From Promethearchaeota archaeon (GTDB lineage Archaea; Asgardarchaeota; Hermodarchaeia; Hermodarchaeales; Hermodarchaeaceae), in the NCBI GenBank assembly GCA_048939625.1, contig JBHLPH010000003.1, positions 32,001 to 96,000 of the forward strand: a DNA stretch of 64,000 bases, in the 5' to 3' direction. Made by a program: the position numbers and the translations under genes. The stretch's first letter is position 1; every line of letters starts with the position of its first letter. Positions 42,903-44,756 of this stretch are shown here, in pieces. The notes beneath the pieces are model-generated. The model saw only the letters and a list, made by a program, of their open reading frames with translations, ran no database searches and had not been told where the DNA came from.

Positions 42903-43062
42903 TACTGCAAGTCTCTCTGCCAATCTTGATAAGATTCCAAGTTTGCCACTGGCAAACGAAAAAGAGAGGACCGTATAAACTGCGGTTTCTATCCTTCAAG
43001 GCTGAGAGGAAACCTTTTTGTGGAAGCACTCGTTTCAACCTTTCTCCGTGCCGGGGCACCGT

Positions 43063-43217
43063 GCCGGGATTATGCTGGTAATTCCTTACCGGCTCCCGAA
43101 GGTGTAAACTGGTATTTGCCCAGGCGCAATGGTAGCATTGAAGCCTGTGGAATCCCATTTGTCCAGGTGGGATGCAGAAAGCTTTAGGTCGGGGTTCGAA
43201 TCCCTGTCCCGGCACCA
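43063..43217 (+). tRNA. tRNA-His(GUG) with three introns (8/9: 43071-43100; 15/16: 43108-43129; 37/38: 43151-43179); CCA encoded
   Basis: Spliced sequence: GCCGGGA TG GTGT AATGGTA GCAT T GAAGC CT GTG GA GCTTT AGGT CGGGG TTCGAAT CCCTG TCCCGGC A CCA. Each intron has a BHB (central helices CGGG:CCCG, GTGT:GCGC, CTGT:GCAG). Adjacent to hisS. Confidence 0.9.
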
Positions 43218-43271
43218 TTTTTCAATCCAAAGGAGGATAATAGATAGAAATTCGAATACGAGTTGAAAAAC

Positions 43272-44756
43272 ATGAAACGTGGAAAAGAGCTAGCCGTAGG
43301 TGGGTTTCGCGACTACTACCCAGAGCTTTACCAGAAAATCGATGTAATATTGCGCGCCTTCCGTGAAATCCCTAAGCTCTTCGGATATATCGAATACGAA
43401 TGCCCAACGGTAGAACCTCTGGAATTATACGAATTGAAATCGGGACCTTCCCTCGTTGAAGAAACTTTCAAAGTAACTGATCGGAAGAAGCGACGACTTG
43501 TATTACGTCCAGAAACCACACCGTCGTTAGCGAGGATGCTTGCAGTTCAACAACAAAATTATCCACGTCCCATCCGATGGTTTTCCATTTCACGTGTATT
43601 TCGAGACGAAACTCTACAACGAGGACGCGTCAAGGAATTTTGGCAATTAAACGTTGACATACTGGGTACAGAGGACGTCTCCGCTGATGCAGAAGTGATT
43701 AATGTTCTTGCAGCCATCATTCTGAGCTTAAACTTCACACCTGAAGACTTTGTTATTCGAATTAATGATCGCCGGCTCATCCAGAGCTTCATCGAATCCC
43801 TAGGTCTGCCAAATTATGTTGAGATTATCCGAGTGTTAGATCGTCGTGAAAAACTCTTACAAGAAACTCTCATTACTAAACTTACAAAGGCGGGTACCCC
43901 ACCAAAAAAAGCGGAAGAAATCGCACTCAAACTCCGTCATTTCTTTGTTGGTAAGCAGAAAGATATACCCAAACTTCCTCGCACAAAGCAAATAGAAGAA
44001 TTGAAAAAACAGCTTCCACGTCTTCAACGCGACGCACTAATGAAAACCTTATCTGATGCAGGTGTCCCTCAAGATGCTGCCCAACAACTCACAGATTTCT
44101 CAGCTATTCGAGGAACCCCAAAGGAGTTTCTTCAAAGAATGAAAGAGGTCAAACTAGATGAAGCTACAAAGAAAGCCTTAGAACCCCTTAGACAGCTAGC
44201 AGAACAGTTCGAAGATTTAGGATTAACGGAAGTCTGCGAATTCGATGCCGGAATTGCCCGGGGCCTTGATTACTATACAGGAATCGTCTTTGAAGCTTGG
44301 GATCGAAGTAGTGAATTACCTCGTGCAATTGCAGGAGGAGGTCGTTATGATGACCTTGTTGGCATTTTTGAGGGACAGCGCTTGCCAGGTACTGGATTTG
44401 GTTTTGGTGAGACTGTTATCATGGAGCTTGCTGAGGAAATGGGCATACTCTCACCACCTCCTCCACCAGCAGAAGTTTATCTCGCTCCTGTCTCCAAAAA
44501 GCAACTAAGCGTTTGTCGAGAAATTGCCACACAGCTTCGAGCAGCAGGAATCCGAACCATTTTCAATGGTTTCTCATGGTCCTTGTCTAAGCGTCTCGAT
44601 GATGCCAGTAAAAGACAGGTACCACTCGCCGCAATTGTCGGACCGCGCGAGCTTGAGCAAAAATCAGTAAATGTCCGAAATATGAAAAGCGGGAAAGAGA
44701 AAATTGTGAAAATAAGTGCCCTTGCAGACTATGTTAAAAGTACTCTGGATTCCTAA
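43272..44756 (+). CDS. hisS: Histidine--tRNA ligase
   Basis: GFRDY, LRPETTPSLAR, motif 2 FRDETLQRGRVKEFWQ, ARGLDYYTG.VFE, GGGRYD.L, C-terminal anticodon-binding domain. Confidence 0.96.
   Translation: MKRGKELAVGGFRDYYPELYQKIDVILRAFREIPKLFGYIEYECPTVEPLELYELKSGPSLVEETFKVTDRKKRRLVLRPETTPSLARMLAVQQQNYPRPIRWFSISRVFRDETLQRGRVKEFWQLNVDILGTEDVSADAEVINVLAAIILSLNFTPEDFVIRINDRRLIQSFIESLGLPNYVEIIRVLDRREKLLQETLITKLTKAGTPPKKAEEIALKLRHFFVGKQKDIPKLPRTKQIEELKKQLPRLQRDALMKTLSDAGVPQDAAQQLTDFSAIRGTPKEFLQRMKEVKLDEATKKALEPLRQLAEQFEDLGLTEVCEFDAGIARGLDYYTGIVFEAWDRSSELPRAIAGGGRYDDLVGIFEGQRLPGTGFGFGETVIMELAEEMGILSPPPPPAEVYLAPVSKKQLSVCREIATQLRAAGIRTIFNGFSWSLSKRLDDASKRQVPLAAIVGPRELEQKSVNVRNMKSGKEKIVKISALADYVKSTLDS

Follow-up and report, generated by a model that had tools for sequence, protein, structure and literature searches.

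The additional guanosine at position -1 of tRNA-His (G-1) is among the most conserved identity marks in translation. To our knowledge this rule is broken only in one clade of alphaproteobacteria and in a few protists. A G-1-less pair of tRNA-His and histidyl-tRNA synthetase (HisRS) has been proven in Caulobacter crescentus, of the alphaproteobacterial RRCH/RCS clade, where recognition occurs through the anticodon, A73 and U72 (PMC3064791), and G-1-independent pairs also work in A. castellanii and T. brucei (PMC4338351). No archaeal exception to the rule appears in a 2023 review of tRNA identity (PMC9976931), and a literature search on tRNA-His, Thg1 or HisRS in Asgard, Heimdall or Hermod archaea found nothing relevant. 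The locus described here, a tRNA-His(GUG) gene and the adjoining HisRS gene (hisS), lies in a stretch of 64,000 nucleotides from a Promethearchaeota archaeon of the Hermodarchaeaceae (GenBank assembly GCA_048939625.1, contig JBHLPH010000003.1, positions 32,001 to 96,000 of the forward strand), referred to below as the window. The two genes appear to specify a histidine identity pair that co-evolved and has no need of G-1, a reading to which we give a probability of a little over three in four. It is favoured because the G-1 contacts of the HisRS are changed, Thg1 was not found and the type of HisRS covaries with nucleotide 73, and it would place an exception to the G-1 rule in the third domain of life.

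Structure of the tRNA-His gene

The tRNA-His gene occupies window positions 43063-43217 of the forward strand, on which all features described here are located, and is interrupted by three introns. The acceptor stem is a perfect helix of 7 bp formed by GCCGGGA (43063-43069) and TCCCGGC (43207-43213). The base at position -1 is T (43062), the discriminator is A73 (43214) and the terminal CCA is encoded (43215-43217), as an earlier reading of the sequence alone (the sequence-only reading) had stated. Because three introns split the gene it is overlooked by ARAGORN and Rfam: ARAGORN with default settings returned no tRNA in the whole window, its intron mode applied to the genome also missed the gene, and the Rfam tRNA model reached only 20 bits at the locus with a poor or wrong acceptor stem.

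The exons were assigned by a scan for the bulge-helix-bulge splicing motif combined with manual inspection, which gave one strict and two relaxed motifs and exons at 43063-43070, 43101-43107, 43130-43150 and 43180-43217. The first exon, GCCGGGAT, carries positions 1-8 and is followed by an intron of 30 nt between positions 8 and 9 (43071-43100), with a central CGGG/CCCG helix, bulges ATT and AAG and an inner hairpin that covaries in the Hermod genomes. The second is a 7-nt micro-exon, GGTGTAA, covering positions 9-15, and precedes a 22-nt intron in the D-loop (43108-43129) that has a relaxed motif consisting of helix GTGT/GCGC, bulges AAA and AAT and inner pairing CTGG/CCAG, with no outer helix. 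The third exon contains the remainder of the D-arm, the anticodon stem and the anticodon GTG (43146-43148). It ends at an intron of 29 nt in the canonical 37/38 position (43151-43179), which is flanked by the strict and top-scoring bulge-helix-bulge with an outer helix of 7 bp and an inner helix of 9 bp. The fourth exon supplies the 3' strand of the anticodon stem, a 4-nt variable loop, the T-arm, the 3' acceptor strand, A73 and CCA. The second and third exons were identified by the motif parse and the fourth from the sequence, in each case together with ARAGORN on the spliced form. When joined, the four exons give 74 nt that ARAGORN recognises as tRNA-His(gtg) with a score of 122.4 and a perfect cloverleaf, including a G1:C72 pair and a 7-nt D-loop, AATGGTA.

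The exon junctions are also fixed independently of the splicing motif by relatives that lack a given intron. Genes of the sister Hermod genus g2 lack introns 1 and 3 and read contiguously across both junctions, as GCCGGGAT/GGTGT and CTGTGGA/GCTTT, and Heimdall orthologues without intron 2 have the D-arm as predicted, TGGTGTAATGGTA(A/G)CAT. With bulge-helix-bulge motifs around its introns and a cloverleaf formed by its joined exons, the locus is an archaeal intron-containing tRNA gene. Brute-force removal of single introns followed by ARAGORN gave ambiguous identities (Gly, Tyr and His); the Tyr identity arose from a misplaced 37/38 cut and is ruled out by the strict splicing motif and the g2 genes lacking the intron.

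The 5' leader (43046-43062) contains a near-copy of its own end and of the 5' acceptor strand. This tandem copy spans 43046-43069, CCGTGCCGGGG nearly matching the last four leader bases plus the acceptor strand (CCGTGCCGGGA), and is kept in Hermod genus g1 and missing in genus g2. The repeat might offer the 3' acceptor strand a second pairing partner or fold into a hairpin in the leader. Immediately 3' of CCA, between the tRNA gene and hisS, the sequence has five consecutive T (43218-43222), a likely archaeal terminator.

Conservation of the locus

The tRNA-His gene adjoins hisS on the upstream side of the latter, with 54 nt between CCA and the hisS start (43218-43271), and this adjacency is kept in all Hermod loci (about 20 genomes) and not in Heimdall genomes. 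Across the Hermod genomes the tRNA-His introns differ but the exons hardly do, and contigs from two independent sediment studies likewise vary in the introns and carry no variant at 43062 or 43214. A custom scan for a GTG anticodon arm followed by a T-arm, with an intron allowed, and ARAGORN run with introns found no second tRNA-His in the source assembly (2.31 Mb, 83 contigs, 87.6% complete).

These data bear on whether the gene is the working copy. It might instead be a decaying or accessory gene, or A73 might have arisen in assembly, the canonical G-1:C73 gene lying in unassembled sequence; the assembly is incomplete, ARAGORN sees only 26 tRNAs in it and tRNA genes are hard to find. Such a gene would not be expected to show invariant exons beside variable introns in about 20 genomes and in independent metagenomes, a perfect cloverleaf and a place next to hisS that is kept across the family. 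The assembly yielded no further tRNA with a GTG anticodon, and the same state occurs in a single-contig genome from another family (G042). Since A73 and the non-G base at -1 recur in about 20 Hermod genomes and in independent contigs without a variant at either site, an error in the sequence or decay of the copy is very unlikely, and this explanation as a whole has a very slight probability. The two findings that the sequence-only reading had named as fatal to its proposal, a functional tRNA-His with G-1:C73 elsewhere and a sequencing error at A73, were thus not encountered in the assembly or in the related sequences.

Strain-level differences in public metagenome contigs fall nearly all within the three introns (43071-43118 and 43153-43174), with a cluster in intron 1, the exons being invariant.

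The histidyl-tRNA synthetase

The hisS gene (43272-44756) encodes 494 residues from its ATG and is the sole PF13393 match in the genome. The product is a class IIa HisRS with Pfam matches to PF13393 (171 bits), PF03129 (66 bits) and PF00587, a GGGRYD His box and a match to HisRS in the PDB at E = 4e-67. Its close relatives are records named Hermodarchaeota, an Asgard lineage. The nearest solved structures are those of Thermoplasma acidophilum (1WU7, 230 bits) and of trypanosomatids (3HRK and 3HRI, about 200 bits), human HisRS scoring 117 bits.

In the Thermus thermophilus HisRS-tRNA complex the grip on G-1 and the 5' phosphate comes from Arg7 and Arg115, from the "absolutely conserved" Arg122 and from 71'RGGR74', a stretch of the other subunit in which Gly72-Gly73 make the pocket for the extra base (PMC4357726). 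Alignment of the window HisRS to this structure (4RDX) places Gly10 (43299-43301) at Arg7, Thr114 at Arg115, Leu115 at Pro116, Lys121 at Arg122 and R71-K72-K73-R74 (43482-43493) at RGGR. By this alignment every G-1 contact known from the T. thermophilus complex is changed. The motif-2 loop reads RDETLQRGRVK (43602-43634), of which RDETLQRGR (43602-43628) represents residues 111-119. It had been singled out as altered by the sequence-only reading, correctly, and proves to be one of four changed elements of the enzyme. The loop retains Gln116, which corresponds to Gln117 of 4RDX and Q118 of Escherichia coli and is invariant in 36 members of the HisRS clade defined below. Among the 142 nearest HisRS representatives outside this clade, Lys or Arg occupies the Arg7 position in 111, the first pocket glycine is present in 103 and Arg122 in about 139.

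The insertion domain, which lies between motifs 2 and 3 and touches nucleotides 72-76 in the T. thermophilus complex (PMC4357726), is enlarged in the window HisRS. It extends over approximately residues 182-316 (43815-44219), as seen from the gap in the alignments with 1WU7 and 3HRK, and is about 60 residues longer than that of 1WU7, with the extra length at residues 210-313. An AlphaFold2 model of the domain is all-helical with a predicted local distance difference test score (pLDDT) of about 90. The additional length is a property of the clade, as all members have about 500 residues against 410-460 in the nearest outgroups. An internal repeat within the domain, LLQETLITKLTKAGTP and LQRDALMKTLSDAGVP (43848-44120, residues 193-283 approximately), is weak, with an alignment score of 40 compared to 26.6 +/- 4.9 for shuffled sequences (z of about 2.7), and the domain seems to have grown by duplicating a helical unit in tandem. 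The anticodon-binding domain (HGTP_anticodon in Pfam, 44472-44741) has no insert, residues 314-489 aligning to residues 250-422 of 1WU7 with no large gap.

Search for a G-1-adding enzyme

Neither of the Pfam profiles PF04446 (Thg1) and PF14413 (Thg1C) gave a match above cut-off in the genome, and a tblastn search of the genome with eight Asgard Thg1 catalytic domains gave a best E value of 0.5. Thg1 was present in 13 of 201 Asgard genomes sampled and was found in none of the 51 that belong to the five families sharing the HisRS type of the window (Hermod 0/18, f4 0/21, f13 0/7, f25 0/2 and f27 0/3). Four further Heimdall metagenome-assembled genomes (MAGs) reached through their HisRS also gave no Thg1 (0/4).

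The sequence-only reading had offered non-templated addition of G-1, as in eukaryotes, as one of two ways in which this tRNA-His could function. The guanosine would then be added after transcription opposite A73, by a Thg1 or Thg1-like protein (TLP) missing from the assemblies or by an unrelated enzyme, and the HisRS would depend on it. Eukaryotic genes do combine A73 with the lack of an encoded G-1 (PMC3245924), the completeness of the genome is 87.6% and Thg1 does occur elsewhere among the Asgard genomes sampled. The uniform lack of Thg1 matches in the 51 genomes, the four MAGs and the tblastn search argues against this explanation, as do the loss of the G-1 pocket and clamp from the HisRS and the properties of archaeal TLPs, which carry out templated addition and, opposite A73, stall or add U. 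Eukaryote-type addition is therefore unsupported by the data and we consider it improbable.

Covariation of HisRS type and nucleotide 73 in Asgard archaea

HisRS types were surveyed in 400 genomes with the N-terminal 176 residues of the window protein as query, and matches at E <= 1e-48 in reading frames of about 500 residues were assigned to the clade. This type of HisRS marks five families, being present in 16 of 18 genomes of f1 (Hermod), 30 of 31 of f4, 3 of 3 of f25, 10 of 12 of f13 and 11 of 12 of f27. The public names of the proteins are nearly all Heimdallarchaeota or Asgard. In a quick maximum-likelihood tree the clade forms a single branch with a Shimodaira-Hasegawa-like approximate likelihood ratio test (SH-aLRT) value of 100, and the Hermod sequences are nested among those of Heimdall.

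Every readable tRNA-His in genomes with the clade HisRS (about 30 genes) has A73 and never G at position -1. These genes were read in about 20 genomes of Hermod, in G202 and G203 of f25, in G147 (the same genome as G204), G217 and G220 of f13, in G239 of f27 and in G042, G144 and G021 of f4, G042 being the single-contig genome. The canonical Asgard HisRS was recognised by R/K at Arg7, KG[GD]R, [R/E/N]PQ and GR[YF]RE, and the five Asgard genomes examined that carry it all have C73, with G-1 encoded in four (G022, G023, G033 and G039) and T-1 accompanied by Thg1 in the fifth (G027). The combinations of A73 with the clade HisRS and of C73 with the canonical HisRS were never mixed in this small sample of related genomes. 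A survey of nucleotide 73 across Asgard genomes, which the sequence-only reading had proposed, is thus in agreement with its suggestion of a co-evolved pair.

The base at -1 is T in most Hermod genomes and A in one, and is A, T or C in Heimdall genomes. This distribution bears on the explanation that U-1 is retained in the mature tRNA, where it would pair with A73 to extend the acceptor stem to 8 bp, RNase P cutting one base upstream as it does in bacteria. T-1 can form such a pair and is kept in nearly all Hermod genes, an aberrant cut by bacterial RNase P is directed by a -1:73 pair (PMC4338351), and the A. pernix HisRS reportedly accepts A-1 or C-1 (PMC9976931). Within the HisRS clade the pair is not maintained: position -1 holds A in a single Hermod genome and either A or C in 6 of 10 Heimdall-type genes read, and neither base can pair with A73. 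Conservation of T-1 within genus g1 is accounted for by its position inside the duplicated leader segment, and the pocket for the -1 base is filled by Lys-Lys in the HisRS. Retention of U-1 is accordingly judged quite improbable.

A custom covariance model for tRNA-His was unspecific, other tRNAs outscoring the intron-rich tRNA-His, and a pattern search based on the anticodon and T-loop was very noisy, so matches were checked by hand. Three candidates were not tRNA-His: L146 (probably tRNA-Trp), L147 (tRNA-Glu CUC) and L148. In family f9 the main tRNA-His was not found by these searches, the sole His gene seen having A-1 and U73. This gene (L160, G036:C266:6700-7400) belongs to an intron-less array of five tRNAs (His, Ala, Gln, Tyr and Asp) spaced by about 10 nt, in a genome that also carries Thg1. 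Its A-1 and U73 could pair, and it may represent a third identity state or be one of a set of mobile-element genes. Family f9 also supplied the HisRS that, among those not in the clade, came closest to the N-terminal query (L157 and L159, from G046 and G182), with 43-45% identity and 430-460 residues. In these proteins R/K at the Arg7 position, the Pro-Gln and Arg122 are kept and KG or EG replaces the GG pocket, a state of intermediate appearance.

A proposed G-1-independent identity pair

The base at -1 of the tRNA-His gene is not G, the discriminator is not C73, and no Thg1 or TLP was found in the genome. These features, the changed G-1 contacts and the covariation of HisRS type with nucleotide 73 fit the second of the possibilities raised by the sequence-only reading, a G-1-independent pair of HisRS and tRNA. 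The archaeal splicing endonuclease and ligase would excise the three introns of the pre-tRNA-His and join its exons. With a base other than G at -1, and no possibility of a G-1:C73 pair, RNase P would cut at the ordinary -1/+1 site, and no G would be added to the 5' end in a cell with no Thg1 or TLP. The mature tRNA-His is thus predicted to begin at G1 like other tRNAs and to end in A73-CCA. The sole HisRS, apparently devoid of the pocket and arginine clamp for G-1 and the 5' phosphate, most likely reads the GUG anticodon through its unchanged anticodon-binding domain and uses the altered motif-2 loop and the insertion domain, enlarged and seemingly duplicated, to read A73 and the acceptor end. 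By analogy with Caulobacter (PMC3064791), anticodon, A73 and acceptor end are the elements on which the enzyme would most likely depend.

Several observations weigh against the G-1-independent pair. The Arg122 change is not obligatory, as clade members such as G217, G218 and G051 retain Arg at this position. The G-1-independent HisRS of T. brucei retains both the GG pair and Arg122 in the alignment, so that loss of the contact residues is suggestive rather than diagnostic. The genomes compared are related and provide few independent contrasts. RNA-library contigs over the tRNA-His gene carry the unspliced form and show no mature tRNA-His ends. Finally, the incomplete assembly may have missed a Thg1 gene or a second tRNA-His, which absence across 51 related genomes makes unlikely.

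Comparison with known systems

The Caulobacter type, as known from published descriptions of its HisRS and tRNA, resembles the window system in having a tRNA-His without G-1 and with A73, a single divergent, longer and co-evolved HisRS and no G-adding enzyme. It differs in belonging to another domain of life and another HisRS lineage. The motif-2 Gln (E. coli Q118) is replaced by Gly in Caulobacter (PMC3561963), whereas the window HisRS keeps it as Gln116 and is instead changed at Arg7, the GG pair, Arg115 and Arg122. The insert of the Caulobacter enzyme is in the anticodon-binding domain and that of the window HisRS in the insertion domain. The tRNAs also differ, as that of Caulobacter has G1:U72 and a 9-nt D-loop with U20a (PMC3064791) in place of the G1:C72 and 7-nt D-loop found here.

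In T. brucei and A. castellanii a tRNA-His without G-1 is charged by HisRS and Thg1 is lacking (PMC4338351, PMC3561963); for the window pair, which shares the other features, charging is predicted. The trypanosomatid HisRS structures (3HRI and 3HRK) are the second-best solved match to the window HisRS and share an LRPE-type core with it. They have Gln at the Arg7 position and lack Arg115 and Pro116, positions that are likewise changed in the window protein. T. brucei differs in having U73 and a HisRS with GG, Arg122 and a short insertion domain, and A. castellanii has a HisRS of ordinary eukaryotic kind.

The resemblance to the eukaryotic cytosolic system is limited to A73 and the lack of an encoded G-1. 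There Thg1 adds G-1 opposite A73, whereas Thg1 was not found in the searches made here, and eukaryotic HisRS has LR[FY]DLT and a GG pocket where the window HisRS has LRPETT and RKKR. Enzymes of the LR[FY]DLT/GG type are carried by the C73-bearing Asgard lineages. The description of this tRNA-His as eukaryote-like holds only for A73.

The canonical archaeal system, in which G-1:C73 is encoded or C73 is combined with a templated TLP, has in common with the window system the archaeal tRNA architecture, introns with archaeal motifs and the class IIa HisRS domain order. It differs in that here A73 replaces C73, G-1 is absent and the G-1 contacts of HisRS are lost, while other Asgard lineages remain canonical. 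The best reading of these comparisons is that the tRNA-His/HisRS pair would function like the alphaproteobacterial and protist G-1-less systems, belong to neither and be independently derived. The different HisRS lineage and the different set of changes point to an independent rewiring of the G-1 rule.

Possible implications for the origin of A73

The trait is not rare in Asgard archaea, as its HisRS type marks five families that include some publicly labelled Heimdallarchaeota. Heimdallarchaeota is the group placed closest to eukaryotes, and the trait has some bearing on the origin of eukaryotic A73. The textbook order starts from C73 with G-1 and has A73 appear later, in early eukaryotes. 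It is conceivable, if unlikely, that A73 and a G-1-less tRNA-His with a dedicated HisRS were ancestral to the Heimdall and Hermod Asgards, from whose lineage eukaryotes arose, and that the A73 universal in eukaryotes was inherited from a G-1-less archaeal ancestor, Thg1-dependent non-templated addition of G-1 having been imposed later when a GG-type HisRS replaced the clade type. If true, this would reverse the textbook order. On the practical side, the window genes provide a new candidate orthogonal HisRS/tRNA pair.

tRNA gene content of the genome

ARAGORN run with introns detected only 26 tRNA genes in the 2.3-Mb genome, and Rfam gave 17 above threshold. Many tRNAs of this genome are probably multi-intron genes invisible to the standard finders, which miss genes such as that of tRNA-His altogether.

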